Shown in pieces: positions 14,497 to 29,823 of a stretch of DNA of 64,000 nt (positions within the stretch are counted from its first letter, which is position 1; every line of letters begins with the position of its first letter). Where the stretch lies: contig CAYYUZ010000001.1 of NCBI GenBank assembly GCA_964475005.1, forward strand, positions 19,780-83,779. Direction: 5' to 3'. Source of the stretch: an uncultured Spirochaetales bacterium. GTDB taxonomy: Bacteria > Spirochaetota > Spirochaetia > JABEVK01. The position numbers were made by a program, and so were the translations under genes. The notes beneath the pieces were generated by a model. That model worked only from the letters and a program-made list of their open reading frames with translations, searched no databases and was not told where the DNA came from.

Positions 14497-14622
14497 GGAA
14501 ACCTCCACGGGTGTGAAAACTTTACTCTACTGAGTTGATCGAGTTATATAACATGAAAAATATCATGTCAAGTTGAATAGTCGTGAATTGACAAGAGCCC
14601 TCAAAAGAGCGATCATGTCACC

Positions 14623-15072
14623 ATGAGTAACGTGGTGTTTCACCGAGCCCTAACGGGACAGCGTTGGGACGGCGTGGAGGTACTGGCCTACAAAGAGGCC
14701 GGGACGACCTTCCAGTCCGTGACTAGGCAAGTCCTGTTCGAGGGCGATCCGGCCCTTTGTGTCCAACTCAGATACTTCGAGGTGGGACCCGGCGGTCACA
14801 CGACGCTCGAACGCCACCAGCATGTTCATTTGGTATGGATAAGCCGTGGAAGAGGGAGGGTCTACGTGGGCGGAGAATTCTTCGAGCTTGCCAAGGGAGA
14901 TGTGCTTTCCATTCCAACGCTGACCTGGCATCAATTTCGGGCACCGCTGAATTCCCCCCTAGGGTTTCACTGTCTGGTGGCAGCCGACCGTGACAAACCC
15001 TCGCTACCCAGCGATCAGGACTGGCGGGAGTTGACACAGAGCCGGGAGGCTGCCGCCTTTCTAAGGAGATGA
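14623..15072 (+). CDS. cupin-domain protein
   Basis: Cupin motif region (GGHTTLERHQHVHLVWISRGRGRVYVGGE) with two His-containing beta-barrel motifs. Confidence 0.6.
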   Translation: MSNVVFHRALTGQRWDGVEVLAYKEAGTTFQSVTRQVLFEGDPALCVQLRYFEVGPGGHTTLERHQHVHLVWISRGRGRVYVGGEFFELAKGDVLSIPTLTWHQFRAPLNSPLGFHCLVAADRDKPSLPSDQDWRELTQSREAAAFLRR

Positions 15073-15264: not shown

Positions 15265-16563
15265 TTGAGCGAGCCCAAGAATTTCGGTTTTGAGACGAGA
15301 ATGGTCCATGCCGGGCACGTTCCCGACACCCAGCACGGATCGAGGGCGGTTCCGATTCACCAGACCTCGTCGTTTGTTTTTTTTGACGCCGACCACGCCG
15401 CCGAGCTGTTTGACCTCAAGCAGTATGGGCACATCTACAGCCGGATCAGCAACCCGACGGTTGCCGTGCTCGAAGAACGAGCCGCCAGCCTGGAAGGGGC
15501 TACCGGCGCCGTGGCGTTCGCCAGCGGCATGGCGGCGCAACTCGGGGCGTTCCTGACGTTGTTGGAAGCCGGGGATGAAGTTGTCGCCTCCAGTCATCTT
15601 TACGGCGGTACGACCACGCAGTTCACCTACACGTTGAAGCGAACCGGCAACCCGGTGACTTTCGTCGACCCGAACGACCTCGATGCCTGGGAGAAGGCGA
15701 TCACGCCGAAAACCAAAGCCCTCTACGGCGAGACGATCGGCAACCCCCAAGGATCCATTCTCGACTTGGAACGTTTGGCAGCGCTGGCCGCCTCGAAGCG
15801 AATTCCTCTCATCATTGACAACACCCTGGCCACCCCTTGGCTCTGTCGACCCATGGATTGGGGAGCCACCTTGGTCACCCATTCGGCGACGAAGTTTTTG
15901 GGGGGGCATGGGAATTCCTTGGGGGGTCTGCTTTTGGACTCCGGCAAGTTCGATTTCGGCCGCTTCCCGAGCATCGCCGAAGCCTCGCCGCAGTACCACA
16001 ACCTGAAGTTCTTCGACACCTTTGGCCATTACGGCTTCCTGATGAAAGCCCGAGCCGCCACCCTGCGCGATACCGGGGCCGCGCTTTCCCCGACCAACGC
16101 GTTCCTTTTGATTCAAGGCTTGGAAACCCTTTCGCTGAGGATGGAGCGCCATGTTTCCAATGCTCAAGCCGTGGCCCGGTTCCTTGAGGGCCACTCTCGG
16201 GTCGACTGGGTGGCCTATGCCGGTCTGCCCAGTCATCCGCACCATGAACGCGCCAAAAAGTACCTTCCCAAAGGCCCGGGCGCCGTACTGAGTTTCGGAA
16301 TCAAACCGCGCCCTGGGCAAACGGCCCGAGAAGCGGGCAAGGAGTTTATCGGCAGGCTGCAGCTGTTCAGCCACCTGGCCAACATTGGCGACGTGCGCAG
16401 CCTGGTGATTCACCCGGCCTCGACCACCCACGCTCAGCTGAGCGATGAAGAGCTGCGGGCCTCGGGCGTTGGCCCCGAACTCATCCGGCTTTCGGTCGGT
16501 ATCGAAACCTTGGAGGATATCTTATGGGATCTGGACCGGGCCTTTCTTGCGCCATCAACCTGA
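15265..16563 (+). CDS. metY: O-acetylhomoserine sulfhydrylase (aminocarboxypropyltransferase), Cys/Met-metabolism PLP family
   Basis: 432 aa MetY-length protein. PLP-lysine motif SATKFLGGHG, VHAGH..., NPT... blocks. Paralog 1 of 3. Confidence 0.85.
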   Translation: MSEPKNFGFETRMVHAGHVPDTQHGSRAVPIHQTSSFVFFDADHAAELFDLKQYGHIYSRISNPTVAVLEERAASLEGATGAVAFASGMAAQLGAFLTLLEAGDEVVASSHLYGGTTTQFTYTLKRTGNPVTFVDPNDLDAWEKAITPKTKALYGETIGNPQGSILDLERLAALAASKRIPLIIDNTLATPWLCRPMDWGATLVTHSATKFLGGHGNSLGGLLLDSGKFDFGRFPSIAEASPQYHNLKFFDTFGHYGFLMKARAATLRDTGAALSPTNAFLLIQGLETLSLRMERHVSNAQAVARFLEGHSRVDWVAYAGLPSHPHHERAKKYLPKGPGAVLSFGIKPRPGQTAREAGKEFIGRLQLFSHLANIGDVRSLVIHPASTTHAQLSDEELRASGVGPELIRLSVGIETLEDILWDLDRAFLAPST

Positions 16564-17063
16564 ACACCAAACTGACCGCTGAACAAAAGCAGCTCTACCA
16601 GGACCCCGAGGCGATCCGAACGATTTTGAACACCTACCGGCGAATTGCCATTGTTGGCCTGTCCACCGACCGGCAGAAGGCGAGTTACTTCGTGGCCTCG
16701 TACCTGAAAGCCGCAGGCTGGGAAGTGGTCCCCGTCAACCCCAAGGCCGACGAGATCCTAGGCTTGAAGGCCTACCCCGATTTGAAATCCATCCCGGGGA
16801 AGGTGGATCTTGTGGACATCTTCCGGCCTGCCGCCGACGTCGGGCCCCTGGTCGAGGACGCCATCGCCATTGGAGCCAAGGCCGTCTGGCAGCAGTTGAG
16901 GATCATCAATCTCGAGGCTGCACAAGCCGCTCGAATGGCCGGGTTGCTGAGCGTCGTCGACCTTTGCCTGAAGATGGAACACGGTCGCTACGGCGGAGGT
17001 TTGCACGAAGCGGGAATGAATACAGAGCTCGTGACGGCCCGCCGGGAACATCGTTTTCTGTAG
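16524..17063 (+). CDS. CoA-binding domain protein (YccU/YneT-like)
   Basis: IAIVGLS...GWEVVPVNPK CoA-binding Rossmann motif. GGAGGA RBS 6 nt before ATG 16524, overlapping metY end by 40 nt. Confidence 0.7.
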   Translation: MGSGPGLSCAINLNTKLTAEQKQLYQDPEAIRTILNTYRRIAIVGLSTDRQKASYFVASYLKAAGWEVVPVNPKADEILGLKAYPDLKSIPGKVDLVDIFRPAADVGPLVEDAIAIGAKAVWQQLRIINLEAAQAARMAGLLSVVDLCLKMEHGRYGGGLHEAGMNTELVTARREHRFL

Positions 17064-17101
17064 TCCTTGTCTCACGGGCGGTTTGACGTTACAGTTCTTG
17101 T

Positions 17102-17533
17102 GTGAAGCTTTCCACAAGATCCCTCTACGGCCTGCGCCTTTTGTACCAAGTGGCTCGAAACTACGACAATGGCCCACTCCAACTCAAGGAAGTGGCGACA
17201 CGCGAATCGATTTCCGAAAAGTACTTGGGGCAGATCGTCCTGTTGTTGCGTTCTTCGGGAATCCTGGTGTCGGTTCGTGGGAATCAGGGCGGCTATCTTT
17301 TAGCACGCAAACCCTCCAGCATCACCGTTCTCCAGGTGGTCGAGGTTCTTGAGGGAGATTTCCTGGAGAGGCTCGATGACGATTCTCCCATCACCGATCC
17401 CAGCCAGGCCGCGACGCGAGAGGTCTGGCGGCGGCTCGGCCGTTCGGTCCGCGACGTGCTCGGCGCGATCACCCTCGAGGACCTTCTGAGCCTCCCCCAA
17501 AACGACGCCAGTTTTCTCGACTTCGCTATCTAG
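17102..17533 (+). CDS. Rrf2-family transcriptional regulator (IscR/CymR-like)
   Basis: N-terminal MKLSTRSLYGLRLL...LKEVA...ISEKYLGQIV wHTH typical of Rrf2. No C-terminal 3-Cys cluster is evident (CymR-like, not IscR-like). Confidence 0.8.
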   Translation: MKLSTRSLYGLRLLYQVARNYDNGPLQLKEVATRESISEKYLGQIVLLLRSSGILVSVRGNQGGYLLARKPSSITVLQVVEVLEGDFLERLDDDSPITDPSQAATREVWRRLGRSVRDVLGAITLEDLLSLPQNDASFLDFAI

Positions 17534-17566
17534 AACGCCCTCGATCTTTCACTTGATCCCAAGAGA

Positions 17567-17730
17567 AGAAGAGAGACCGGATAACCGGAAGTCAATTCAA
17601 ATTGACCGGATCAGAAGAGTCGAGGCAAGAGCCAGAAATTCAAGCAGAACTTCTCAACGCTTCGCCGTCTGACTTGACCACCTTTCTCGAAATCCGGTTG
17701 ATCCGGCCCATCCTGTTATCCGGTCTCTTC
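17567..17730. repeat. MITE-like inverted-repeat element, copy A (about 165 bp)
   Basis: Left end GAGAGACCGGATAACCGGA (17571-17589) and right end GTTATCCGGTCTC (17715-17727) are reverse complements. Internal CCGGAT/ATCCGG hexamer repeats (TTGACCGGATCAGAAGAG ... ATCCGGTTGATCCGGCC). Second copy with identical ends at 30964-31120. Confidence 0.7.
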
Positions 17731-18606
17731 CTAAATCCGCGCTGCCGGGGAGGCCGAAATCCCCGTCTCCATGGCAACCAGCACGTCGGCCCATTTGGCG
17801 GCCCAGTCCCGAAGCTCCTTCGATTCCAGCGGCGCCGGAATTTTCGATTCCGTGTGACTGGCAATTTTGTTCGCCAGGTTGAAATACACTTGGGCCTGGG
17901 GAGATTCCGGGTAGGCCTCAATGGTCGTCTTGCCCTGCAGTTCGGCCTGGGTGACGGTGACCGATCTAGGAACGTACTCCACCACCTGGGTCTGGGTCTT
18001 TTGCACGAAGTCGTCGATAATGTCGCGCGGGTAGCCCGGCGCCATCGAGTTGGCAATGACGCCGCCCAACAGTGCGCCTCCGGACCGAGAGTATTTGTGG
18101 ATACCCTTGAACAGGTTGTTGGCGGCGTAGATGGCCATGAAATCGGCCGACGAGACTGTGAAGACGTGCTCAGCGATTCCTTCTCGGATAGGCACCGCGA
18201 AGCCTCCGCACACGACGTCACCAAGAACGTCGTAGATCACGACGTCGAGGTCGAGGTCCTCGAACACCTTCTGTTGTTTGAACAGCTGAACGCTGGTGAT
18301 GATTCCTCGTCCCGCGCAGCCCACACCAGGTGCCGGTCCGCCGGCCTCGACGCAGTACACGCCGCCGAAACCTTCGAAGATCACGGAGCGGGCTTTCAGG
18401 TGGGCGTTCTCCTGTAGGGAATCAAGAATGGTGGGAATGTAGTCGCCGCCGCGAAGGGTGTTTGTCGAGTCGGCCTTCGGGTCGCAGCCGAACTGCATGA
18501 CTTTGTAGCCGAGTTTGGCCAGCGCGGCGCTGAGGTTGCTCGTCGTCGTGGACTTGCCGATGCCGCCCTTTCCGTAGATGGCGATTTGCTGAATTTTCTT
18601 AGACAC
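17731..18606 (-). CDS. nitrogenase-like reductase Fe protein, NifH/BchL/CfbC/MarH family (MarH-like)
   Basis: Walker [15 protein letters not shown]. Both [4Fe-4S] ligand cysteines in canonical context ([19 protein letters not shown]; [14 protein letters not shown]). GGAG RBS 8 nt before GTG 18606; start overlaps the nifX-like stop by 8 nt (GTGTCTAA). Confidence 0.85.
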
Positions 18607-18973
18607 GGGGAGTACTCCTTGGGATAAATACGTTTCGATAAAGAGGCGAAGCAGCGACGCGGGCCAAGGCCGGAACGACGGGGTCTTCGGTGGAGAGAAA
18701 GGCGATTCCGCAGGCGGCCAGGCCTTGAACGACGGCCGGCCCCGCGGCGGCGGCCAGAACGAAGCGGCAATCGGAGAACCGTGCGAGGGCCGTTCCCAGA
18801 CCCTCGCCGTGACCTTCCTCGCCGCAGAGCGCGGGCACGGTTCGTTCGCCTTCCCACGCGAAACTTCGGCCATTCCAGAGATAGAGTTCAAACCGAGAGG
18901 CACGGCCGAAATGCCGATCGACGGTTTGGCCACCCTGGCTGGCGACGGCGGCTCGGATGAGGTTTTCAGCCAT
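18599..18973 (-). CDS. NifX/NafY/NifB-C-terminal-domain family protein (FeMo-cofactor-precursor-binding-like)
   Basis: [24 protein letters not shown] matches the Nitro_FeMo-Co domain start (AVAS..G..V..HFG....F.IY). ATG 18973 overlaps the nifB-like stop by 8 nt (ATGGCTGA). Confidence 0.75.
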
Positions 18974-19850
18974 GACTGAAGGTCTCCGCCACAGCCTCAC
19001 CGCCGTAAAGTTCCGCCGAAAGGTCAAGCTGCCCGGGAATGCCGCAGGCGTCGGCGCGGCAATGCCGGCAATGCCGGAACACCGCTAGGTGCTTTTCCGC
19101 GTCTCGGCGGGCGCGGTCGAGGGTCTCTTCGGTGGGAGGGTCCCACGCGGCGAAACGATGCTGAGGAATCAGGGGGATGATGTTAAAAAGCCCGGCTCCC
19201 TCAGCCGCCACCGTCCGGGCAGTCTCTTCCACGTGGTGATCGTTGATACCAGGAATCAGAACCAGATTCACCTTGATCGTGAGGCCGTGCGCGGCGGCTT
19301 CTCGAATGCCGGCTAGTTGCTGCCGAATCAGGACCTTGGCCCCCGCTTGTCCCTTCAAGACCTGGCCATGAAACCTCACACGGTCGACGATTTGGGCCAC
19401 GATGAGAGGGTCGACGCCGTTGACGGTCACGGTCAGTGTTCCCAGTCCCAACTGCAACAGCTCGTCAAGCCGCTCTTGCAGCAGGAGGCCGTTGGTGCTC
19501 AGGCACTTCACCAAATCAGGAAAGCAGGCCTGCACGGCGCGAAAGGTTTTCAGAGCGTGGGGCGTCGAAAGTGTGTCGCCGGGACCGGCGATGCCAACTA
19601 CAGAGATCTCGGGGCAGAGTTCCAAGGCCCGCGCAACAACTTCGGGGGCTTCTTCGGGTGTCACCAGGCGTCCGGTCACTCCGGGGCGGATCTCACTCTT
19701 GTTGAACTCGCGTCGGCAGAAGCCGCAACTAATGTTGCAGGAAGGGCTGACGGGGAGGTGGACCCTGCCACGGGTCAGGTGGGCCGCCGGGCTGAAACAG
19801 GGGTGGAGACGAGCCGGGGAAGAGGCCGAAAAAAGCGGTGGTGACTCCAT
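18966..19850 (-). CDS. NifB-like radical SAM protein (radical-SAM domain only; NifX domain is the separate downstream ORF)
   Basis: [32 protein letters not shown] matches the NifB signature HPCY..A....R.H.PVAP.CNI.C.YC.R, including the CxxxCxxC radical-SAM cluster. AAGGAGG RBS before ATG 19850. Confidence 0.85.
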
Positions 19851-19964
19851 GTTGCCTCCTTGACTACCGAAAAACTAGCATTTGCAATATTTTATGTCAA
19901 TCAACATAGTTAACATTAATAGACTAAATAACTAGCGTTTAAGTAGTATTACTAGGAGGACGTC
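19851..19964. promoter_or_regulatory. AT-rich divergent control region (nifB-like operon <-> metY paralog 2) with palindrome TAGTATTACTA
   Basis: 114-bp AT-rich gap. Perfect 11-bp palindrome at 19943-19953. TTGCAATATTTTATGTCAATCAAC contains -35-like TTGCAA/TGTCAA words. A related AGTAATACT palindrome lies in the nifD-like/metY3 gap. Confidence 0.45.
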
Positions 19965-21275
19965 ATGTCTGTACCCAAGCTCCAGTTTGATACCCTGAAA
20001 GTCAGGGCCGGCTACGACCCCAAAGATCACCAGAACGCGATCGCCGTTCCCATCTACCAGACCGCCTCGTTTGACCTCGGGGATACCGCCCGCGTCGACC
20101 GGTTACTGTCGTTTCAGGAGGCCGGCTGGCTGTACACCCGGATCGGCAATCCTACTGTCGATGTTTTGGAGCGTCGGGTCGCCGCCCTCGATGGCGGCGC
20201 CGCGGCCATCGCGGTCGCCTCGGGCATGGCAGCCATCTCGTACACTTTACTGAATCTGGCCGAAGGGGGAGGAAGGATCTTGACCACCCCTAGGCTCTAT
20301 GGAGGCACCTTTGACGCCTTCCAGAAGGTCCTCGCGCCGCTGGGTATTGGAGTCGATCTCGTCGAAGACTCCGACAAACCCGAATCGTTCCGCAAGGCGC
20401 TCAAGTCAAATACCAAAGCCATCTTGATCGAGTCGATCTCTAACCCCAACGCCACCGTGCTCGACATCGAGGCCATTGCCAAGGTGGCCCACGACTTCGG
20501 CATTCCCCTGGTGGTCGACAATACCTTCGCGACGCCCTATTTGTTCGACGCGTTTGGCCACGGCGCCGACCTTGTTGTTTATTCGGCGACGAAGGCCCTC
20601 AACGGCCACGGCAACACCATCGGTGGCGTGATCGTCGAAAGTGGGAAGTTCAACTATGCCAACGGAAAGTTCCCGCAATTCCAGAAGCCCACCTACCTGC
20701 TTCGCGACCGACCGACCAACGTCGAGCGCAGCTTTCTCGAGGCCTTTCCGGACTTTCCCCTCACGGTGCGCATCCGTCTGAACTATCTGGCCTACCTCGG
20801 TGCTGCGCTTAGTCCTTTCGATGCCTTTCTGATCCTTCAAGGCATCGAGACGCTTTCCGAGAGGGTGGGCAAGCAGGTGGCGAACGCCGAGAGAGTGATC
20901 AAGTTCCTGGAAACTCACCCGCAGGTCGCCTGGGTGAAGCATCCGGCGGCCAAGGGCAATCCCTACGCGGAACTTGCCAAGAAGTACCTTCCCCAAGGTG
21001 CAGGGGGCATCTTCACGTTTGGATTCCGGGGAAGCGACGCTCAGTACAACAAGTTCATCGATTCGCTCAAGGTCTTCAGTTTCCACGCCAATGTCGGGGA
21101 TGCCCGCTCGCTGGTCATCAATTCCCCCAAGACCACGCACGGCGAGCTTCGCCCCGCCGAACAACTGACCGCCGATATCCCGCCGGAAACGATTCGGCTG
21201 TCGATTGGTATCGAGGACCCCCGCGACCTGATCGCCGACCTGCGCCAGGCGTTCAAGGCGGCGCTGAAGGCCTGA
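19965..21275 (+). CDS. metY: O-acetylhomoserine sulfhydrylase-family PLP enzyme (paralog 2)
   Basis: 436 aa; PLP-lysine motif SATKALNGHG; MetY-family blocks throughout. Sits between and opposite to the two nitrogenase-like operons. Confidence 0.8.
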   Translation: MSVPKLQFDTLKVRAGYDPKDHQNAIAVPIYQTASFDLGDTARVDRLLSFQEAGWLYTRIGNPTVDVLERRVAALDGGAAAIAVASGMAAISYTLLNLAEGGGRILTTPRLYGGTFDAFQKVLAPLGIGVDLVEDSDKPESFRKALKSNTKAILIESISNPNATVLDIEAIAKVAHDFGIPLVVDNTFATPYLFDAFGHGADLVVYSATKALNGHGNTIGGVIVESGKFNYANGKFPQFQKPTYLLRDRPTNVERSFLEAFPDFPLTVRIRLNYLAYLGAALSPFDAFLILQGIETLSERVGKQVANAERVIKFLETHPQVAWVKHPAAKGNPYAELAKKYLPQGAGGIFTFGFRGSDAQYNKFIDSLKVFSFHANVGDARSLVINSPKTTHGELRPAEQLTADIPPETIRLSIGIEDPRDLIADLRQAFKAALKA

Positions 21276-21337
21276 GCCGGCGAGCGAAGCGATGCCCGTG
21301 TCGTTCTAGGCGAAGCCCAATCGGCGAGATCCGAGCC

Positions 21338-22651
21338 TTAGTTAAATTGTTGCAGCACCCAGGTATAGATGTCTTCCAGCAGTTTCAGCCCGCCATGGTA
21401 GCCGGCGTAGGTGCCGTGGAGGACCAGCCTTTCCTTCATGGGCACCGACACCGCCAGAAAGTTGCCCTCCAACTCTTGTGCGAGTTTCTTTTCAAAAATG
21501 CTCCCGAGAATCAAGGGTGGGCCGAACCAGTCGGTGTCGCGGATGGCCTGGTGAATGAGATGGCCGTCTGTCGAAAAGACGACCGGAGCCTCGATCCCGT
21601 ACTGAAACTCCTTGAAATAGCCGACGATGCGGTTCCGATGCTCCTCGGGAGTGGCGTCGGTGATGTACTGGGTTTCGGGAACGAGTCCGAAATCGTTGAC
21701 CAAGAACTTGCTGTAGGCCAATGCGTCCGCGGCGTTTGTGACGGTCGAGAAACGGCGGCTCATGGTCCGGTTTTCGAGGAACACGTCGCTGGTCCTCTCG
21801 ATGTGAAAGTAGTATTCCTTTTCGTGGCGGTCGATGACGCGCTCGACGAGTGTCGGTTCGAGCTCGGCAAATTTCCCTACCGTCCTGAGGAAGCGGCTCG
21901 TCTCGAAGGCTCCTACCGGCAAGTTCGGAAGGTGCAGGTAGGGCGTTCCAAAGGCTTCCTCGAGATGAAGAACGTTGCCAAGTCCCACCCAAGGTGAAAC
22001 GAGCAAGTTGAACTCGGCGTTTGGCACACGGTTGAGATTCTCAATGCCACGGTACTCGCCGAAAATCGCGTTGGGGATAAGGCCAACCTCTTCGAGCAAG
22101 GACTCCAGCACGCGGAAGTTGCCGACCCAGAACGGATCGTAGGACGGGATCGGTCCCCAAACGTTGACCAATCCCTTGACCAGCGGTCCCTTGCCGCGGG
22201 GAACCAGATACTGGTCGATCAGCGCATCGACCACCCACTGGTGGCCTTCGAGGTTGTTAGCCTTGAAGCCAGGGGTTTCCACAGCCACGACAGGTTTTCC
22301 CGCGTTCTGAAATTCTTGCACGACCTTTTTGATATCGTCTCCCACAATTTCGGTGGTGCAGCCCGATAGCACCACGTAGAGGTCTCCGTCGACGACCTTG
22401 AGCGCGTTGGAAATGGTTTCGCGCAGCCGGCCTTCTCCGCCGAATACGGTTTCTCGCTCACCGACATTGGTGCAGGGGTAGATCTGCGGGGACAGGTAGC
22501 CGGAGTCGCCGTTGCTTCCCGCAATGCCCCCCGCGAGCTTGGCCGCGCACCCCGGCCCGGCGTGAAGCACGGGAACTCCGCGGTAGAGACCTTGCACGGT
22601 CTGCATGGCGCCCAAGGCGCAGACGTAACGAGGTTGGTCGAGGATCTTCAT
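21338..22651 (-). CDS. nitrogenase-like reductase component-1 beta-type subunit, NifK/NifN/MarK-like
   Basis: Nitrogenase component-1-type oxidoreductase fold. P-cluster-type cysteine contexts (YVCALGA; AGPGCAAK; VVLSGCTTEIVGDDI = CxxxxIGDD motif). ATGA start/stop overlap with the upstream D-like gene. Confidence 0.8.
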   Translation of the reverse strand: MKILDQPRYVCALGAMQTVQGLYRGVPVLHAGPGCAAKLAGGIAGSNGDSGYLSPQIYPCTNVGERETVFGGEGRLRETISNALKVVDGDLYVVLSGCTTEIVGDDIKKVVQEFQNAGKPVVAVETPGFKANNLEGHQWVVDALIDQYLVPRGKGPLVKGLVNVWGPIPSYDPFWVGNFRVLESLLEEVGLIPNAIFGEYRGIENLNRVPNAEFNLLVSPWVGLGNVLHLEEAFGTPYLHLPNLPVGAFETSRFLRTVGKFAELEPTLVERVIDRHEKEYYFHIERTSDVFLENRTMSRRFSTVTNAADALAYSKFLVNDFGLVPETQYITDATPEEHRNRIVGYFKEFQYGIEAPVVFSTDGHLIHQAIRDTDWFGPPLILGSIFEKKLAQELEGNFLAVSVPMKERLVLHGTYAGYHGGLKLLEDIYTWVLQQFN

Positions 22652-24120
22652 GCGGGTTCTCCGGCTTCAAGAAAGTTGTGGTGGGGCTGGGCAAACCACC
22701 AGCCGGTGTAGGGCAGTTTTACGCGGCTGGCGAGGTTCTTGGTGAAACTGCGGTTGGTCACGACGTCGTGGACGGCTGACGCGAACTTGACCAAGCCGTG
22801 GTAGCCGAAGATGGCGTATTCGTCAAAGACGCACAGTGAAGGGATGCCGAGCTTGGTCGCCCAGACCGTCGAGCCGGTGTGGCGGCTAAAGAAGATGTCG
22901 GGCTTCACTGTGTTGAGGATGTTGAGCAGTTCGAAGTTTTGCAGGTCGTTGACCGACAGGGGAAAGTCGTTGGGGGAGTGATCGAGCAGGTACTGGAAGG
23001 ATTCCGGCCTGCGGCCGTCTTCGTACTGCTTGTCGAAGTGCCAAGCGGCTGAGTGAACGATTTCGAGGCCCAGTTCCTGCAATACTCTTGTCGTGTTGAA
23101 GTTGAAGCCTGGGCCCATGCCGACAACGGCGCGTAGACCAGTAAGCTTGGCCCGGAATGCTTCGATCTTGGGCTGCCAGGTCTCCTTTTCCTTTTTCAAG
23201 TACGCGTCGGCGATGTCATCCTTGCCCAAAACCTTGGCCAAGCCCCGGACCCAACTTTCGAAACCCGCCATGCCGTGGGGTTGGAGCGACTTGATGTAGG
23301 GCACCCCGTACTGTTCTTCCAGTCCATGGCCCAGATAGGTTCCCAACGTGGCGCAAGTGCTGACCGTGGCGACCGACTCAGACAATTGGGACAACTGTTC
23401 AATGGTAGTGTTCGACAAGAGGAACAAAGGTTCGACCCCGAAAAGAGCGAACAACGCGGTGATCTCCTTGCGGGCGCTGCCAAAGAAGTTGATCACGTTG
23501 ACGACGTCGCGCTTGACCTTTGGGGGCTGAACGATGGTGCTCAGAATGGCGTGAAAGGCCGCGTCAAAGCCGCTGGCCCAGATCTGCGTCTTGAACCCCT
23601 CGCAAAAGACGGGAGCGACGGGTATCCCCAGTTCCTCCGAGGTCTCGCGGGCGATGCTGGCGAGGTCCTCGCCGATGACGCCACTAACGCACGAGGCGCC
23701 GATGAAGATGGCGCGCGGGTCATAGCGCCTGTGGGTTTCTCTCACCACGTCGCGAAGGTTCTCGGTGGCCCCAAACACGGTGTCGGCCTCGTTCATGTCG
23801 GTGCTCACGTACCCCGAGCGGGAGTTGTCGAGGCCCAATTTCGCGGCCAACTGATCTTTGGAGTTGCTGAGGCTCATGGCGGTCACCGCGCAGCCAGAGG
23901 GGGAGTGGTGGACCACGGCAGCGTCGGTCACAAAGCCCAGCTGACCGAGAGCGCAGGCGGCGTTGCACAGGCTTGCCTGGCTGAAGCATCGCTTGCGGTC
24001 GCCGAAGCCCCCGCCACCGCAAGCCTGACCGAGCCCTTGAAGCGTTCCCTCGTAGCCCGTAATCGAGCCGAGGCGGTTTTCTCGGGTTCCCGTCTCTGTT
24101 CCTTTGCCGTAATCACTCAT
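22648..24120 (-). CDS. nitrogenase-like reductase component-1 alpha-type subunit, NifD/NifE/MarD-like
   Basis: FIGASCVSGVIGEDL (CxxxxIG[DE]D P-cluster motif), FCEGF, and a Cys in the cofactor-ligand region (VSTCATLGTY). AAGGAG RBS 7 nt before ATG 24120. Confidence 0.8.
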   Translation of the reverse strand: MSDYGKGTETGTRENRLGSITGYEGTLQGLGQACGGGGFGDRKRCFSQASLCNAACALGQLGFVTDAAVVHHSPSGCAVTAMSLSNSKDQLAAKLGLDNSRSGYVSTDMNEADTVFGATENLRDVVRETHRRYDPRAIFIGASCVSGVIGEDLASIARETSEELGIPVAPVFCEGFKTQIWASGFDAAFHAILSTIVQPPKVKRDVVNVINFFGSARKEITALFALFGVEPLFLLSNTTIEQLSQLSESVATVSTCATLGTYLGHGLEEQYGVPYIKSLQPHGMAGFESWVRGLAKVLGKDDIADAYLKKEKETWQPKIEAFRAKLTGLRAVVGMGPGFNFNTTRVLQELGLEIVHSAAWHFDKQYEDGRRPESFQYLLDHSPNDFPLSVNDLQNFELLNILNTVKPDIFFSRHTGSTVWATKLGIPSLCVFDEYAIFGYHGLVKFASAVHDVVTNRSFTKNLASRVKLPYTGWWFAQPHHNFLEAGEPA

Positions 24121-24289
24121 CGTGATCTCCTTGTAGGGGTACTTTAGCGAGGTTAACTTTGGTTAGTCAAGTAATACTACTAACATAATAGTGAAAGATT
24201 TTCAAAAACATAACTGAGTCTATTGACAAACATAAACAAACACTACTATCACTAGTCTGTAACTAGTGTTTATGATCAAGGAGTGAGTG
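24121..24289. promoter_or_regulatory. AT-rich divergent control region (nifD/K-like operon <-> metY paralog 3 operon) with palindrome AGTAATACT
   Basis: 169-bp AT-rich gap. AGTAATACTACT at 24169-24180 (odd palindrome AGTA-A-TACT). GTCAAGTAATAC word shared with 5561. Twin ACTAGT palindromes at 24251-24272. Confidence 0.45.
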
Positions 24290-25594
24290 ATGAGCGAGAG
24301 GAAGTTGGCCTTCGATACCCTTCAGGTCCACGCCGGGCAGGTTCCTGACCCGACGACGGGGGCCCGGGCTGTCCCCATCTATCAGACGACCTCGTTCGTC
24401 TACAAGAACTTCGACCACGCCATCGCGCTCAGTACCGTGGCCGAGTTCGGTTTCACCTACACGCGGGTCGTCAATCCCACGGCCGATGTCTTGGAACAGC
24501 GGATCGCGGCCCTGGAAGGCGGCTCCGGCGCTTTGGCGTTGGCCTCCGGTTCGGCGGCAACCACCTACGCCATCCTCAATCTTGCCGGTACCGGCGACCA
24601 CATCGTTTCCGCGCAGACCCTCTACGGCGGCACCTACAACCTGTTCGCCAACACTCTCCCCCGCTACGGGATTACGACCACCTTCGTCGATCCCGACGAA
24701 CCTGAGAATTTTCGGAAGGCCATCCGCATCAACACCAAGGCGGTGTTCATCGAGTCCATCGGCAACCCCGGAATCAACATCATCGACATCGAAAAGGTCG
24801 CCAAGATCGCCCACGAAAACGGTGTCCCTCTCATCGTCGACAACACCTTCGGCACGCCGTACCTGATCCGGCCGTTTGAATACGGTGCCGACGTCATTGT
24901 CCACTCGGCCACTAAGTACATCGGCGGCCACGGAACCACCATTGGAGGCCTTCTGGTCGAAGGGGGAAAATTCGACTGGTCCAAGAGCGGCAAATTCCCC
25001 GGTTTCACCGAAGTGGACAAGAGTTACGGCTTCAGCCACTGGGAGCGCTTCGGCAACTACAACGGCGCGAACATCGCGTTCATCATCAAGGCCCGTTTGC
25101 AACTGCTGCGCGACATCGGCGCGGCGCTGTCCCCTCAGAACGCCTTCCTCCTCCTCCAAGGGCTGGAAAGCTTGTCGCTTCGGGTTCAAAAGCATGTTTC
25201 CAATGCTCAGAAGATCGCCGAGCACCTGGCCAAACATCCGCAGGTCGAGTGGATCGATTACCCTGGGCTGCCAACCAACAAGTACCACGCCGTCGCCAAG
25301 AAGTACTTTCCCCGGGGCGTGGGAGCTATCTTCGCCTTCGGGATTAAGGGCGGGTTTCCCGCGGCCAAGAAATTCATCGAGAGCCTGACGATCTTCTCTT
25401 TTTTGGCCAACGTCGCCGATGCCAAGAGCCTTGTCGTTCATCCGGCTACCGTCACCCACGGTCAGCTCAACGAGCAGCAGCAACGCGAGGCGGGGGTCAA
25501 ACCCGAGCAGATCCGCCTGTCCATCGGTATCGAAGACGCCGAGGACCTGCTCTGGGACCTCGACCAGGCTTTTGAGAAGGCCAAGAAACTCTGA
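24290..25594 (+). CDS. metY: O-acetylhomoserine sulfhydrylase-family PLP enzyme (paralog 3)
   Basis: PLP-lysine motif [19 protein letters not shown] 8 nt before ATG 24290; the listed start at 24287 is a GTG. First gene of a long rightward operon. Confidence 0.85.
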
Positions 25595-25665: not shown

Positions 25666-26634
25666 ATGACTAAGAAGATTCTTTCGGTCGTTTGTTCCGT
25701 TCTCGTGGCTTCGGGTGCCTTCGGGCAGAGCACCGAGAAATTCCAGGTAGCCTGGGGCGGAGGAGCTTGCGAGGCTCCTGTGCTGGCGGCCTACTACAAC
25801 GGCTTTTTCAAGCAGGAAGGGCTTGACGTCGAACTGGTCAAAGTTCCCGATTTTGAGTCGGAGAAGACCGCGCTGGCCTCGAACAAGATCAGCGGTGCCG
25901 TCGGCAACTTTGGCTGGTTCAAGGCCATTGAACAGGGCTTCGCCGTCAAGCTGACCGGCGGTATCCACGCGGGTTGTATCAAGTTTGTCACTCCCCAGGG
26001 TTCGGCCATCAAGACCTTGGCCGACGTGAAGGGCAAGACCATCGGTATTGACGCCATTGGTTCGGGCCCCCAGATTGACCTTTCGATCGCCTTGCGAAAC
26101 GCTGGAATCAACCCCAAGACGGAAGTCTCCTGGAGGGCCTATCCTCCCACCGAGCTTTCTGCCGCCGTCAAGAAGAAGGAAATCGACGCGTTCATCGTCT
26201 GGGATCCGTTTGCCGCTTTCGCCGTGCAGGATGAGAAGTACAACACCCTTCTCGACATCGCCAAGGACGAACCTTTCAAGAGCGGCTATTGCTGCTTCGT
26301 CGTTGTCAGCGCGCTCTTGGTGAAGAACGACCCGAAGAAGGCCGCCGCCTACACCAAGGCCATCCTCCGTGGTGCCAAGTGGGTGGGTGAGAACCCCGAC
26401 AAGGCCGCTGCTCTCGAGGTCGACAACAAGTTTGTCCCCGGTGAGAAGCAGCAGATTGCCGACCTGTTGGCCAGCTACTACTGGAGGCCGTCGGTGTCTC
26501 ACGCCAAGGATGTCGCCAAGTACTTCATCACCGAACAGAAGAAGGACGGAATTTTGGAAGCGACGACCAACGAGGCCAAGCTCCTCGACCGCCTGTTTGC
26601 CACCGTCGTCACCGACGCCGAAGTCAATCTCTAG
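25666..26634 (+). CDS. ABC transporter substrate-binding protein, NMT1/NitT/TauT family
   Basis: Signal peptide MTKKILSVVCSVLVASGAFG; NMT1-like PBP. Confidence 0.75.
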   Translation: MTKKILSVVCSVLVASGAFGQSTEKFQVAWGGGACEAPVLAAYYNGFFKQEGLDVELVKVPDFESEKTALASNKISGAVGNFGWFKAIEQGFAVKLTGGIHAGCIKFVTPQGSAIKTLADVKGKTIGIDAIGSGPQIDLSIALRNAGINPKTEVSWRAYPPTELSAAVKKKEIDAFIVWDPFAAFAVQDEKYNTLLDIAKDEPFKSGYCCFVVVSALLVKNDPKKAAAYTKAILRGAKWVGENPDKAAALEVDNKFVPGEKQQIADLLASYYWRPSVSHAKDVAKYFITEQKKDGILEATTNEAKLLDRLFATVVTDAEVNL

Positions 26635-26697
26635 AGCTGATCTCTCCGGTTTGGCAAAAGCCAGACCGGAGAATTTTACCTGCCAAATGAGGAATCC

Positions 26698-27663
26698 ATG
26701 TCGGTCTCTCCGCGATTCAAAGTGCATCCTTTCTTTTGGGGTCCCCCCGTGGCCCTGCTCCTCGACCAAGTTCTGCATTTCTTTCCCGAAGACAACCTGC
26801 AACCGGCTCCGGAAACCGGAGTCTACTCGTTTTTGCTTTGGGTTCTTTTCGGGGCTTACGCGCTCTTTTTGACCGCGTCGGTCTTTCACCAGAGGATCAG
26901 AACGAAACTCCACCACTACACGCCCTTGCTGACGGCCTTTTTTTTGTTTTTTGGTCTCTGGGACACCGTGACGCTCAAGTACGCTCTGATCCCACTACCC
27001 TATTTTCCTGGCCCGGACCGGGTCTTGAGCGTGTTCGTCAACGATGGTGACATCTTTGGTCTTGGCATCTACCACTCTCTGGTTTTGCTGTTCACCGGCT
27101 ACGCGGTCGGCGGCGTTCTTGGCCTGATCACAGGGATTTCGATTGGTTGGAGCCGCCGCCTCTCGTACTGGATCAATCCCGTGTTCAAGTTTGTCGGTCC
27201 TATCCCGGCCACGGCTTGGATTCCAATCGCGATGATCACGTTTCCAACAAGCTTTTCGGCCGGAGTCTTTCTGATCGCCCTGTCGGTCTGGTTTCCCGTA
27301 ACCTTCATGACGAGTTCGGGCATCGCCGGCGTGAAAAACTCCTATTTTGAGGTGGCACGAACCCTCGGCGCCGACAACCGGTTCCTGATCTTCAAAGTCG
27401 CCGTTCCGGCGGCCTTTCCCCTGATCTTCATCGGGTTGTTTATGGGTTTGGGGCTGTCGTTCCTGACGCTCATTGCAGCCGAAACCTTGGGTGTTAAGGG
27501 TGGGCTTGGGTACCTGATTCTCTGGGCGCAAGGCTGGGGTGAGTACTACAAAGTCTACGCCGTGTTGATCACCATCGCTGTGCTGTTCTCGTCGCTCATT
27601 CTGATCTTGTTCAAAATCAAGGACCGTATCCTTATCTGGCAGAAAGGACTCATCAAATGGTAA
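26698..27663 (+). CDS. ABC transporter permease (NitT/TauT family)
   Basis: BPD_transp_1 permease core with extra N-terminal TM segment(s). Confidence 0.75.
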   Translation: MSVSPRFKVHPFFWGPPVALLLDQVLHFFPEDNLQPAPETGVYSFLLWVLFGAYALFLTASVFHQRIRTKLHHYTPLLTAFFLFFGLWDTVTLKYALIPLPYFPGPDRVLSVFVNDGDIFGLGIYHSLVLLFTGYAVGGVLGLITGISIGWSRRLSYWINPVFKFVGPIPATAWIPIAMITFPTSFSAGVFLIALSVWFPVTFMTSSGIAGVKNSYFEVARTLGADNRFLIFKVAVPAAFPLIFIGLFMGLGLSFLTLIAAETLGVKGGLGYLILWAQGWGEYYKVYAVLITIAVLFSSLILILFKIKDRILIWQKGLIKW

Positions 27664-28454
27664 TCCCAGCCGCCGCCTCGGGCCGGATCGAGGTCAAGGC
27701 TGTCAGCCGAACGTTCATCAACCATGAAGGCGACCGAATCCACGCCCTCGACAAGGTCGACCTGACGGTAGAGAGCGGAGAATTTCTTTCCCTTTTGGGA
27801 CCTTCCGGCTGCGGCAAATCGACCCTGCTGAGGCTTGTCGCCGGCCTGGATACCGCCTACGAAGGCTCGATCGCTGTCGACGGTGTTCCCGTTACCAAGC
27901 CTGGAGCGGAACGCGGTCTGGTGTTTCAAGACCCGAACCTGTTCCCTTGGCTCAGCGTCCGCAGGAACATTCAGCTGGGACTCGAGGCGCGTCAGGTTCT
28001 CAAGGAGAAGAAGGACGAGGTCGACGACTACATTCAACTCGTGGGGCTGAAGGGGTTTGAGAAGACCTTTCCCCACCAGCTCTCCGGCGGAATGGCCCAG
28101 CGGGCGGCCATCGCCAGGGCTCTGATCAACCACCCCAAAGTGCTTCTGCTCGACGAACCGTTGGGTGCCCTCGACGCCTTCACCCGCATGGCCATGCAAG
28201 ACGAGATTCTCCGAATTTGGACGGAGCGTCGCACCACAGCAGTTCTGGTGACCCACGACATCGACGAGGCCATTTACATGAGCGACCGCATCGTTATTCT
28301 TTCGCCTCGGCCTGGCCGGATTCAGAAGGTACTCACCATCGATCTGCCCCGGCCCCGCCGCCGCAACGATCCCGAGTTCCTGAAGATCCGTTCCGGCATT
28401 CTGGAGACCCTGCATTTTGCCGAAGAGGAGCCCATCCTTGCCTACAACCTTTGA
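27657..28454 (+). CDS. ABC transporter ATP-binding protein (NitT/TauT family)
   Basis: Walker A GPSGCGKST, signature LSGGMAQR, Walker B LLLDEP. Confidence 0.85.
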   Translation: MVIPAAASGRIEVKAVSRTFINHEGDRIHALDKVDLTVESGEFLSLLGPSGCGKSTLLRLVAGLDTAYEGSIAVDGVPVTKPGAERGLVFQDPNLFPWLSVRRNIQLGLEARQVLKEKKDEVDDYIQLVGLKGFEKTFPHQLSGGMAQRAAIARALINHPKVLLLDEPLGALDAFTRMAMQDEILRIWTERRTTAVLVTHDIDEAIYMSDRIVILSPRPGRIQKVLTIDLPRPRRRNDPEFLKIRSGILETLHFAEEEPILAYNL

Positions 28455-29823
28455 CACAGCCCAGACGACCGGCATCCGGAACTCCATTTTGGAGGTTGTG
28501 GGACAAACTCCGCTGGTCAGGTTGTCGAGGTTAGGACGCGAGCTCAACGTCGATTTGCTGGTCAAAGTCGAGACTGTCAACCCTGGCGGCAGCATTAAGG
28601 ATCGTGTCGCTATTGCCATGGTCGACGCCGCCGAACGCGAAGGACGGCTGAAACCCGGTGGCACCCTCATCGAGGCGACCGCAGGAAATACCGGCGTGGG
28701 ATTGGCGCAACTGGCGGCCGTGCGCGGCTACCGGTGCATTTTTGTTCTGCCGGACAAGATGAGCGAAGACAAGGTCAGCCTGTTGCGCGCCTACGGGGCC
28801 GAGGTGGTCATCACGCCGACCAACGTGGCCCCCGATTCCCCCGAAAGCTACAACGGGGTTGCCGACCGCCTTGCCCGCGAAATTCCGGGTGCTTGGCGGC
28901 CCAACCAGTTTGCCAACGACGACAACCCGAAAGCTCATTACGATTCCACGGGTCCCGAAATCTGGCAGGCCACTGGCGGGCGCATCGACATTCTCGTCGC
29001 AGGCATGGGCACAGGCGGCACCATCTCGGGAACCGGCCGTTTCCTCAAGGAAAAGAACCCCAGCGTGGTCGTTGTCGGTGCCGACATCGAGGGGTCCATC
29101 CTTTCGGGCGACAGTCCCAAGCCGTGGAAGGTCGAAGGCATCGGTGAGGATTTCATCCCCAAGACCTTCGACCGCCAGGTCATCGATGAATTCGTGCGCG
29201 TCAGCGACAAGGAGTCGTTTCTCACCGCCAGGCGACTTGCGCGGGAAGAGGGCATCTTGGCCGGGGGGTCGTCGGGCACAGCGCTGGCGGGAGCCCTCAA
29301 ATACGCCACGCGTCTTCAGGAGCGAAAGACCGTGGTGGTCGTCCTGCCCGACACGGGAAGGAACTATCTGACCAAGCTCTACAGCGACAGGTGGATGCAG
29401 GAGAACCAGTTCCTCGAGTCCGAAAGCACGCGCATCACCCTCCGCAACGCGCTCGAACGGCGGATTTCGTTCCCTCCTCTGATCACCGTCAGCCCTTCCA
29501 CGACCCTTTCCGAAGCGCTCGAAATCATGCAGAAGTACGGCATCAGCCAACTGCCCGTGCTCGACGGCGGCAGGGCGGTCGGAAGCCTGCAAGAGTCCTC
29601 TTTCCTCAAGCTGGTTTGGGATGGCTTAGATTTCCGCAACCAGCAGGTCAACGCCGTCATGGGACAACCGCTTCCCACCCTTGATTGGGGCACCGAGGTC
29701 ACCGAAGCCTACCGTCTGCTCCTTTCGGGGACAAACGCCCTTTTGGTCACACAGGATGGCGTCCCGACTTCGGTCCTCACGAGGATCGATCTGATCGACT
29801 TTCTTTCCAGGAGAACCTCATGA
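28417..29823 (+). CDS. cystathionine beta-synthase (CysK-fold PLP domain + C-terminal CBS-domain pair)
   Basis: N-terminal Trp-synth-beta/CysK fold with PLP-lysine context (GSIKDR) and TAGNTG loop. About 130-aa C-terminal tandem CBS domains. Start overlaps the upstream ATPase by 38 nt, so start is approximate. Confidence 0.75.
   Translation: MPKRSPSLPTTFDTAQTTGIRNSILEVVGQTPLVRLSRLGRELNVDLLVKVETVNPGGSIKDRVAIAMVDAAEREGRLKPGGTLIEATAGNTGVGLAQLAAVRGYRCIFVLPDKMSEDKVSLLRAYGAEVVITPTNVAPDSPESYNGVADRLAREIPGAWRPNQFANDDNPKAHYDSTGPEIWQATGGRIDILVAGMGTGGTISGTGRFLKEKNPSVVVVGADIEGSILSGDSPKPWKVEGIGEDFIPKTFDRQVIDEFVRVSDKESFLTARRLAREEGILAGGSSGTALAGALKYATRLQERKTVVVVLPDTGRNYLTKLYSDRWMQENQFLESESTRITLRNALERRISFPPLITVSPSTTLSEALEIMQKYGISQLPVLDGGRAVGSLQESSFLKLVWDGLDFRNQQVNAVMGQPLPTLDWGTEVTEAYRLLLSGTNALLVTQDGVPTSVLTRIDLIDFLSRRTS

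Follow-up and report, generated by a model that had tools for sequence, protein, structure and literature searches.

The window analyzed here, a 64,000-nucleotide stretch of DNA from an uncultured Spirochaetales bacterium, contains three genes of the O-acetylhomoserine sulfhydrylase (MetY) family, which we call Y1, Y2, and Y3, together with a set of nitrogenase-like genes (Table 1). All three had been reported as full-length in a preliminary description made from the sequence alone, and their coordinates, their matches to PF01053 over the whole protein (E = 1e-115 to 1e-138), and their lengths (432, 436, and 434–435 residues for Y1, Y2, and Y3, respectively) agree with this. The lysine motifs quoted at that time also proved correct on reading the three proteins (e.g., HSATKFLGGHG in Y1 and YSATKALNGHG in Y2). 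Each protein falls in the MetY length class (∼420–440 residues, with an insertion), and the neighboring cystathionine γ-lyase-like protein has 378 residues. The insertion is missing from cystathionine γ-synthase, cystathionine γ-lyase, and methionine γ-lyase. TIGR01326 was one of the two best NCBIfam matches for each protein; Y1 and Y3 scored above its curated cutoff of 495.1 bits and Y2 just below it, and equivalog cutoffs in the NCBIfam profile search were reached by none of the three. When compared with the MetY of Thermotoga maritima (TmMetY), Y3 aligned end-to-end and Y1 via multiple alignments only; Y2 matched solved sulfhydrylases across residues 5–434. The equivalents of TmMetY K210, Y58, R60, Y113, and R405 are kept in all three proteins and in at least 99% of each of the clades to which they belong.

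Global protein identity is 42.7% between Y1 and Y2, 51.2% between Y1 and Y3, and 51.9% between Y2 and Y3, in keeping with the earlier statement that the copies are clearly diverged. At the DNA level, the best common stretch of the three genes spans 77 nt and is only 64–70% identical; neither a duplication nor a gene conversion has therefore taken place recently. The possibility that the copies are recent duplicates or pseudogenes is excluded by this low DNA identity and by the intact open reading frames (ORFs) and catalytic residues. The GC content at third codon positions (0.74–0.80) is like that of the neighboring genes. As controls we took 42 MetY loci, each ≥8 kb long, that were recovered by scanning metagenomes; the scan used back-translated patterns aimed at the Y2 clade, but these are generic and recovered mostly ordinary MetY (41%–68% identity). 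Two MetY-family genes were present in one of the 42 loci and three in none, and the presence of three so close together in the window is not chance density.

Table 1. Features of the MetY region of the window
Feature	Coordinates	Strand	Evidence and remarks
Cupin, Rru_A2000 homologue	14623–15072	+	PF07883; best solved structure 3jzv_A, E = 1.5e-43; first gene of the Y1 operon
Y1, MetY-family enzyme	15265–16563	+	TTG start, GAGGAG ribosome-binding site; TIGR01326 584.6 bits; cupin-MetY-CoA-binding clade
CoA_binding_2 protein	16524–17063	+	PF13380, E = 9.6e-37; start overlaps Y1 stop by 40 nt
Rrf2-family regulator, CymR-like	17102–17533	+	PF02082; CymR best NCBIfam match, 112.9 bits (cutoff 195)
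NifH/MarH-like Fe protein	17731–18606	-	291 residues, also in calls on identical metagenome contigs; TIGR01287 398.5 bits
NifX/NafY-like cofactor-binding protein	18599–18973	-	124 residues; tblastn with NifX-like proteins of related loci; PF02579, E = 8.9e-11; start codon mapped
NifB/MarB-like radical SAM cofactor maturase	18966–19850	-	TIGR01290 250.6 bits; PF04055
Divergent promoter region, marB/Y2	19851–19964	.	AT-rich; three ACTAG motifs
Y2, MetY-like enzyme	19965–21275	+	TIGR01326 485.8 bits; distinct clade linked to nitrogenase-like D/K; apparently monocistronic here
NifK/MarK-like subunit (K)	21338–22651	-	PF00148; best solved structure Rhodospirillum rubrum MarK (9d9u_C/9fmg), 346 bits
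NifD/MarD-like catalytic subunit (D)	22648–24120	-	best solved structure R. rubrum MarD (9d9u_A/9fmg_A), 325 bits
Divergent promoter region, marD/Y3	24121–24289	.	AT-rich; TTGACA box; palindrome CACTAGT-N5-ACTAGTG
Y3, canonical MetY, homocysteine-synthase type	24290–25594	+	TIGR01326 625.9 bits; PRK08248 'homocysteine synthase' 638 bits (cutoff 726); heads operon
SsuA-like binding protein, permease, ATPase (sulfonate/taurine-type ABC importer)	25666–28454	+	PF09084/PF13379, PF00528, PF00005; SsuA_fam below cutoff
Cystathionine β-synthase (CBS)	28438–29823	+	TIGR01137 544.6 bits (cutoff 510.25)
Cystathionine γ-lyase/synthase-family enzyme	29820–30956	+	378 residues; PRK07811 496 bits, below cutoff of 513
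CysK fused to C_GCAxxG_C_C domain	31474–32940	+	TIGR01139 416 bits (cutoff 351); PF09719

The surroundings of the three genes are as previously described. Y1 lies upstream of the genes for the coenzyme A (CoA)-binding protein and the Rrf2-family regulator. Y2 stands between the NifB/NifH-like operon and the NifD/NifK-like operon and runs opposite to both, and Y3 is divergent from the D/K pair and heads an operon that continues with the binding protein, permease, and ATPase of a transporter, CBS, and the cystathionine γ-lyase-like enzyme. Two details of the gene map had to be corrected: the NifH-like gene, given earlier as an ORF of 400 residues, encodes 291, and a NifX-like gene had been overlooked in the apparent 359-nt gap between marB and marH. 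It fills this gap and shares 8 nt with each neighbor, at the stop of marB and at the start of marH. On the identical metagenome contigs over this stretch (L001, L002, and L004), gene calling likewise misses it and places a plus-strand ORF there instead.

The nitrogenase-like genes encode NifH-, NifB-, NifD-, and NifK-like proteins and the NifX-like protein, and a NifE/NifN pair was not found in the window. The best structural match of D is the catalytic subunit of methylthio-alkane reductase (Mar) from R. rubrum; any match of D to a nitrogenase or to NifE scored ≤134 bits, compared with 325 bits for MarD, and MarK was the sole chain that matched K at E ≤ 1e-60. All six P-cluster cysteines are conserved (Cys66, Cys91, and Cys158 of D; Cys32, Cys56, and Cys121 of K). 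The [Fe8S9C]-cluster ligands Cys270 and His429, with Arg428, have been called the "hallmark of methylthio-alkane reductases" (PMC12552129), and window D keeps Cys270 as well as Arg428-His429 (FFSRHTG). Among 120 D homologues, Arg428 was present in 95 and His429 in 101, the remainder being gaps at those alignment columns. Window D is 66%–75% identical to proteins from Geotalea and the L008–L013 genomes and 50%–57% identical to those of many Clostridia, Bacteroidales, and Treponema. From these sequence comparisons, we assign the enzyme to the Mar type and place window D in a subclade separate from R. rubrum MarD. MarBHDK, a nitrogenase-like enzyme of Group IV-C, cleaves dimethyl sulfide (DMS), methylthioethanol, and related compounds, giving methanethiol, which O-acetylhomoserine sulfhydrylase joins to O-acetylhomoserine to form methionine; the earlier pairing of a MetY-type enzyme with the adjacent reductase thus follows published logic.

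A D-centered scan of 185,579 species genomes, from which the 80 best loci were kept, located MetY-family genes in the flanks of 11 of these 80 (three in L009 and two in each of two loci). Homologues of the CysK-C_GCAxxG_C_C fusion, 39%–60% identical, were present in 40 of the 80 best loci (within L023–L087), and the order CysK-fusion, NifB, NifH, CysK, D, K recurs in Lachnospiraceae, Clostridia, and Treponema. Where this order is found, the copy that precedes NifB is 55%–60% identical. The usual partner of the reductase across genomes would thus seem to be a sulfhydrylase of the serine type and not MetY. More generally, a reductase of this kind appears as a rule to have a pyridoxal 5'-phosphate (PLP) sulfhydrylase as its partner, be it one that acts on homoserine or one that acts on serine derivatives. 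The same fusion also occurs beside ordinary MetY in many contigs from gut and environmental samples, where an Rrf2 gene is often present as well (loci L096, L116, L119, L127, L131, L143, L151, L159, L161, L164, L166, and L167).

A neighbor-joining tree of 69 sequences (100 bootstraps; single outgroup, the window's cystathionine γ-lyase-like protein) separated the three window enzymes. The Y2 clade (bootstrap 98–100) is sister to a 99%-supported group of all other MetY sampled, a canonical group that takes in five solved enzymes (7kb0, 8sf5, 8wko, 4kam, and 2ctz). The Y1 clade has a bootstrap of 100 and a long stem, and Y3 clusters with TmMetY, 8sf5, and 8wko. The deep branching order, obtained with a simple method and one outgroup, is provisional. 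The closest relatives are 72%–92% identical to Y1, 63%–91% to Y2, and 68%–84% to Y3, and the closest named relatives of the window genes come from Geotalea, Firmicutes, and assorted metagenome-assembled genomes. Exact copies of the window proteins were seen only on metagenome contigs (ENA ERZ27245620 and others, Logan SRR8543846, and JGI 3300031240). The nearest D homologues belong to metagenome-assembled genomes with taxon labels that contradict one another (Acetivibrio, Geobacter, Kineosporiaceae, and Marinamargulisbacteria), and no weight was put on these labels. Because each copy is nearer to orthologues in other phyla than to its paralogues in the window, this is not a triplication; judged from the sequences, Y1, Y2, and Y3 are ancient paralogues from separate old clades, each with its own conserved neighborhood. 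The preliminary description had reasoned that triplication suggests specialization and had proposed a phylogeny of the copies. That phylogeny, run with the solved MetY structures, gives three separate clades, with Y3 canonical and Y2 outside the canonical group; the notion of a triplication falls, and the division of labor is pointed to by comparative context instead. "Three metY genes" in an annotation should, as this case shows, not be collapsed to one function.

The neighborhood of Y2 was compared in six members of its clade, chosen by name or for long contigs with their context not known beforehand. In five, nitrogenase-like D/K genes lie within 3 kb of the Y2 orthologue: Heliobacillus mobilis (Y2-D-K), Propionispora (D-K-Y2), Paenibacillus (NifX-Y2-D-K), Geotalea toluenoxydans (NifX-UROD-Y2-D-K), and Thermoanaerobacterium (NifB-NifX-NUDIX-D-K-MetNIQ-Y2). 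None of the 42 control MetY loci has D/K genes beside it (Fisher p = 3.5e-6). The MetY copy tied to the reductase is Y2. The clade was found in Firmicutes, Desulfuromonadota, Bacteroidales, and other groups. Since the Geotalea D and K that follow its Y2 orthologue are 71% and 74% identical to window D and K, we regard Y2-D-K, on this sequence evidence, as the conserved core of the window's reductase subclade. Propionispora has two different D/K pairs, each with its own MetY type. Sets of genes for ThiS, ThiF, JAB, sulfite reductase, and TusA, which we take to be the protein-thiocarboxylate homocysteine route, directly continue the nitrogenase-like/MetY clusters in Propionispora (L006, GCA_900141835.1, 1–15545) and Thermoanaerobacterium (L170, 14555–18374).

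Y2 also differs from the other two enzymes in its predicted active site. In TmMetY, Arg270' walls off the site, disfavoring O-succinylhomoserine and enforcing bisulfide over larger nucleophiles, and Asn118 occupies the place of the cysteine-binding arginine of MetB; the MetB residue equivalent to Arg270 is Asn, making room for O-succinylhomoserine and cysteine (PMC8191291). We surveyed these positions in 443 aligned sequences, the local alignment being anchored by the conserved GAALSP motif and not ambiguous. Arginine at position 270 was present in all 119 Y1-type and all 119 Y3-type sequences, in 74 of 75 control MetY, and in the five solved MetY, and in none of 118 Y2-clade sequences (Ala in 88, Asn in 12, Ile in 6, Val in 3, Ser in 2, and other residues in 7). 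Throughout the Y2 clade (118/118), Asp271 is replaced by Tyr, Asn118 by Asp, and Gln388 by Glu; His14 is replaced by Arg in 113 of 118, and Asp104-Glu105 by Gly-Arg. Window Y2 itself has Ala270, Tyr271, Asp118, Glu388, and Arg14 (TmMetY numbering). Two of the changed positions, Arg270 and Asn118, are placed in the second-substrate site by the TmMetY structure. Because Lys210, Tyr58, Arg60, Tyr113, and Arg405 are kept, Y2 is probably an active γ-replacement enzyme with a changed second-substrate pocket, and because the Arg270 wall is missing we call it MetY-like rather than a bona fide bisulfide-type sulfhydrylase. Removal of the cationic wall and addition of a tyrosine would favor a neutral alkyl thiol. 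The active site thus points to specialization for Y2 only, Y1 and Y3 keeping the canonical Arg270. A subfamily with these properties (D/K-linked, without Arg270, and below the TIGR01326 cutoff) was not found described in the literature searched.

Y1 keeps Arg270 and has Thr at position 118. The cupin gene lies 192 nt upstream and encodes a homologue of Rru_A2000, the 1-methylthio-xylulose-5-P methylsulfurylase of R. rubrum, which releases methanethiol (PMC4958253). In three Y1-clade members picked solely for long contigs (L172–L174), genes for a cupin, Y1, the CoA-binding protein, and a RuBisCO-like protein (RLP) were clustered in all three, and MtnA was present in two. The four genes are on one strand in two of these loci, and in L174 the cupin and RLP genes are divergent, upstream of Y1. 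The Y1 orthologues in cupin-Y1-CoA-binding-RLP loci are 74%–80% identical, the window cupin is 45%–54% identical to the cupins beside them in L172–L174, and the window CoA-binding protein is 58%–66% identical to its counterparts in L006 and L172–L174. In Propionispora (L006), the cupin-Y1-CoA-binding trio stands directly before a D/K pair whose D is 81% identical to R. rubrum MarD. From this context, we infer that Y1 is a methanethiol-capturing partner of the adjacent cupin. The preliminary description had given methanethiol released by the adjacent reductase as an example of a thiol for a specialized copy; Y1 is the copy for which a methanethiol link has the best support, and this comes from the Rru_A2000-type cupin beside it and not from the reductase.

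The CoA_binding_2 (PF13380) gene is a very frequent direct neighbor of Y1-like MetY in unrelated metagenome contigs, often overlapping it, and the pairing is also seen where a cupin or nitrogenase-like gene is missing (loci L099, L108, L113, L125, L129, L130, L132, L137, L138, L140, L141, L156, L158, L160, and L162). One idea is that the protein serves MetY by supplying the thiol of CoA or by sensing acetyl-CoA.

Y3 keeps every canonical residue, Arg270 and Asn118 among them, and by its sequence it looks like an ordinary homocysteine synthase. Its operon likely serves to make homocysteine and then to convert it to cysteine by reverse transsulfuration, a route that is required if sulfur enters as methionine. 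Locus L175 has the same operon order around a 79%-identical Y3 orthologue and continues with a NifX-like gene, a small ORF without a family match, and the homoserine O-acetyltransferase MetX with MetW. In L012, an 81%-identical Y3 orthologue lies upstream of H-B-D-K, and genes for a γ-lyase-like enzyme, CBS, and an ATP-binding cassette (ABC) transporter follow downstream on the opposite strand.

Several sulfhydrylases amid Mar genes is a pattern already published for the purple bacteria R. rubrum and Rhodopseudomonas palustris, so the arrangement is not new; the window is a further case of it, in which the reductase belongs to another subclade and the regulator is of another type. The "thiol cluster" of R. 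rubrum (∼36 kb, around Rru_A0772-A0796) contains marBHDK, a second nflDK pair, the sulfhydrylases Rru_A0774 and Rru_A0784, the cystathionine γ-synthase A0786, and MetNIQ homologues, and its genes are induced on sulfate limitation. For Rru_A0774, in vitro assays with O-acetyl- and O-succinylhomoserine have been published, and the methanethiol-coupling step is assigned to it (PMC4958253). The two regions have in common a C-S reductase amid several sulfhydrylase paralogues, a cystathionine γ-synthase/lyase-family gene, and MetNIQ-type transporters. They differ in that the window has three sulfhydrylases rather than two, its marBH genes are set apart from marDK by a MetY gene and run against them, its regulator is a CymR-like Rrf2 protein whereas R. 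rubrum has the LysR-type SalR, and its Rru_A2000-type cupin lies inside the island whereas that of R. rubrum is elsewhere. No LysR-type protein was found among the window genes scanned; a SalR may be encoded outside the window. In the R. palustris Mar2/NflDK3 region (RPA2347-2364), marBH2 is apart from marDK2, metY (RPA2349) and metC stand beside marD2, and a NifX homologue is beside marBH2; NflDK3 adjoins another sulfhydrylase and a methionine transporter, and all are up-regulated on sulfate limitation (bioRxiv 10.64898/2026.08.20.746119). The marBH/marDK split, a MetY gene near marD, and a NifX homologue near marBH are thus shared with the window, but the R. palustris spacer is 4.5 kb long, the window spacer is a single MetY gene, and the phylum-level background differs. 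With TmMetY (PDB 7KB0/7KB1), all three window enzymes share fold, length class, and catalytic residues, and Y1 and Y3 share Arg270; the differences are the replacement, in the Y2 clade, of Arg270-Asp271 by Ala/Asn/Ile-Tyr, of Asn118 by Asp, of Gln388 by Glu, and of His14 by Arg, and Thr at position 118 in Y1.

The cupin module resembles the 5'-methylthioadenosine (MTA)-isoprenoid shunt of R. rubrum (MtnA, the RuBisCO-like Rru_A1998, the cupin Rru_A2000, and a sulfhydrylase) in that a clear Rru_A2000 homologue directly precedes Y1. It differs from the shunt in that the cupin-Y1-CoA-binding trio lies <1 kb from nitrogenase-like genes, both in the window and in Propionispora; the Propionispora trio is directly upstream of marDK, whereas in the window the Rrf2 gene stands between the trio and marH, which is convergent with it. 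Non-selenium type I mlp clusters combine nitrogenase-like genes, MetY, a methylsulfurylase cupin, and other sulfur genes (2023 preprint, PMC10418091, Fig. 7). A likeness to these is seen in genes for URO-D-family (MtaA/Mlp-like) methyltransferases, one of which is immediately upstream of Y2-D-K in Geotalea (L169, 8851–9939), another ∼4.6 kb upstream of Y2 beside a second D/K pair in Heliobacillus (L005, 4338–5372), and a third near cupin-Y1 in L172 (7937–9025). The annotated region of the window has no URO-D/Mlp-type methyltransferase.

We infer all substrate assignments of Y1, Y2, and Y3 from sequence. The reading we prefer, at a probability of about 0.55, is that three anciently separated members of the MetY family have been gathered in a sulfur-starvation island around a Mar-type reductase, and that each traps sulfur for a module of its own. 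Together with the Rru_A2000-type cupin and the CoA-binding protein, to which it is translationally coupled, Y1 would combine methanethiol from methylthio-sugar (MTA) salvage with O-acetylhomoserine and yield methionine directly. Y2 would partner the nitrogenase-like D/K and trap the volatile thiol leaving the reductase, which would be methanethiol if the enzyme behaves like Mar; its remodeled pocket (Ala-Tyr for Arg270-Asp271, Asp for Asn118, and Glu for Gln388) would select a neutral alkyl thiol over anionic bisulfide. Y3 would be a bisulfide-type homocysteine synthase, co-transcribed with a sulfonate-type importer, CBS, and the γ-lyase-like enzyme, so that the sulfur of homocysteine could pass to cysteine. 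The CymR-like Rrf2 protein would co-regulate the island, which would be induced on sulfate limitation. Y2 may further represent a MetY-like subfamily dedicated to nitrogenase-like reductases, an alkyl-thiol γ-synthase that discriminates against bisulfide and turns the volatile product of a neighboring C-S reductase directly into methionine or another S-alkyl-homocysteine; we put this forward tentatively and hold it to be possible but doubtful. If true, Y2/D/K would form a conserved pair of enzymes that "cleave and trap", and the thiol used by Y2 would reveal the substrate class of the window's reductase subclade.

Several observations weigh against this division of labor. Queries from L172–L174 for the RuBisCO-like protein and MtnA, which would feed the cupin, found no match in the 64-kb window (tblastn), although they may lie elsewhere in the genome, and the window yielded no homoserine O-acetyltransferase either. 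Only six Y2-clade members make up the sample with independent context, the Methylomusa Y2 locus has no D/K gene within 10 kb, and the MetY tree is a neighbor-joining tree with one outgroup only. Window D is 35% identical to R. rubrum MarD (Propionispora D1, 81%), and its closest large group of relatives is mostly CysK-paired, so the product of the reductase may not be methanethiol. Corynebacterium and yeast MetY enzymes, of the canonical Arg270-bearing type, reportedly use methanethiol; loss of Arg270 is therefore not required for methanethiol use and may signal something else. The R. rubrum enzymes, presumably also of the canonical type, are likewise reported to use methanethiol (PMC4958253).

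In a first rival, the three enzymes are redundant isozymes that perform the same reaction (O-acetylhomoserine with sulfide, methanethiol being a side substrate), differ only in regulation, expression level, or kinetics, and have come together by accretion of sulfur genes in one starvation regulon. Canonical MetY-type enzymes credited with methanethiol use (PMC4958253), the retention of all catalytic residues in the three proteins, the two R. rubrum sulfhydrylases with no published division of labor, and the similar AT-rich islands at the three promoters, which suggest common control, are all consistent with such redundancy. We nevertheless judge it unlikely, given that each copy has a different conserved neighborhood spanning phyla, that the Y2 clade has changed throughout at the second-substrate positions Arg270 and Asn118, and that the paralogues are ancient and not recent back-ups. 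The pocket changes could also mean that Y2 is not a sulfhydrylase in vivo and catalyzes another γ-reaction, be it cystathionine γ-synthase-like with cysteine or another large thiol, dependent on O-succinyl- or O-phospho-homoserine, or a γ-elimination of methionine or homocysteine that releases methanethiol or H2S for cysteine synthesis. The Asn at the 270 equivalent of MetB (PMC8191291), matched in 12 of 118 Y2-clade proteins, the position of Y2 under the TIGR01326 cutoff, and the label "mdeA" or methionine γ-lyase that some sources give to clade members all point this way. Y2 keeps the MetY length and the MetY-specific insertion, however (436 residues versus 378), and scores ∼420 bits against solved sulfhydrylases versus ∼270 bits against γ-lyases; a catabolic lyase would be ill-suited beside a sulfur-acquisition reductase, and the island already has dedicated CBS and cystathionine γ-lyase-like genes. 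We therefore consider another γ-reaction less likely still.

The remaining rival concerns the sulfur donor. The Wolinella MetY is said to take sulfur from the protein thiocarboxylate HcyS-COSH, and loss of Arg270 in Y2 could open the site for the C-terminal tail of such a carrier. In Propionispora and Thermoanaerobacterium, the ThiS-ThiF-JAB-sulfite reductase-TusA sets described above lie downstream of the Y2 orthologue at a distance of 1.6–4 kb, which favors this rival, but the Heliobacillus, Paenibacillus, and Geotalea Y2 loci have no ThiS-ThiF-JAB sets, the Thermoanaerobacterium set has its own MetY-family gene with Arg270 kept, and no ThiS, ThiF, or JAB homologue was found in the window (tblastn). 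A thiocarboxylate-dependent Y2 is thus very improbable, and we rejected it because of the Arg270 in the HcyS-linked Thermoanaerobacterium enzyme and the lack of these homologues in the window.

In anoxic soils and sediments, methane, ethylene, and methanethiol are set free by nitrogenase-like C-S reductases, and to our knowledge a substrate has been assigned to only a minority of the subclades of these enzymes. If there is a dedicated trapping enzyme for each type of reductase, the thiol preference of that enzyme, obtained from a simple PLP enzyme assay, would report the product of the metalloenzyme. The Arg270-less Y2 clade would likewise be a natural test of the proposal, based on TmMetY, that the choice of second substrate across the MetY/MetB family is governed by a single arginine. 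The proposed specialization, which is partly supported, is better cast not as three copies of one gene but as three old clades that would each serve their own source of sulfur.

The MetY genes are part of a sulfur-scavenging island that occupies ∼1–49.5 kb of the window. It encodes four SsuA-type ABC systems, a cystine-type ABC system, TauD, CysM, MetNIQ (37003–39379), an FMO-like monooxygenase, a four-domain rhodanese protein, CBS, the cystathionine γ-lyase-like enzyme, and the CysK-C_GCAxxG fusion. A cytoplasmic BisC-family molybdopterin S/N-oxide reductase is also encoded (9015–11435, minus strand; 836 bits to TIGR00509, below cutoff); possible reactions are the reduction of dimethyl sulfoxide to the Mar substrate DMS and that of methionine sulfoxide to methionine.

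The CymR-like Rrf2 protein is a candidate local sulfur regulator, and Rrf2 genes recur in the related loci L005, L010, and L175. Against a background of 59% GC, the window has sharp AT-rich islands of <36% GC (14511–14600, 19851–19970, 24131–24290, 31381–31490, 36951–37060, and 42161–42240), which include the promoters of cupin-Y1, marB/Y2, marD/Y3, the CysK fusion, and metN and contain TTGACA boxes and ACTAG-type motifs. The palindrome CACTAGT-N5-ACTAGTG is perfect and lies at 24250–24268, directly before the Y3 ribosome-binding site. These motifs and the palindrome may be operators of the CymR-like protein. The AT-rich promoters share just a loose ACTAG/TTGACA-type similarity and one palindrome, which is too little for a regulon motif; from the sequence, co-regulation of the sulfur operons is plausible. 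A search of the whole window against Rfam at gathering thresholds gave no riboswitch or T-box match.

A mobile-element-like block (50032–63942) abuts the island and encodes a PD-(D/E)XK nuclease, RadC, RecT, SSB, a WYL-domain regulator, and a DnaB-like helicase. A strong GC-skew shift begins at ∼50 kb, for part of which coding-strand bias is an alternative. tRNA genes, which could mark an island boundary, were not found in the window. Within the island, an element of ∼155 nt is present in two copies only (17568–17732 and 30965–31121, plus strand), directly after the last genes of plus-strand operons, the Rrf2 gene and the cystathionine γ-lyase-like gene, respectively. Its nested inverted-repeat ends are conserved (GAGACCGGATAACCGG...ACCGGATCAGA and ATCCGGTTGATCCGGCC...GTTATCCGGTCTC) and its center is divergent. 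Each copy folds as one long hairpin (z = -4.8 and -5.0), and the element could be related to repetitive extragenic palindromes (REP) or miniature inverted-repeat transposable elements (MITE), or could act as a large terminator or stabilizer.

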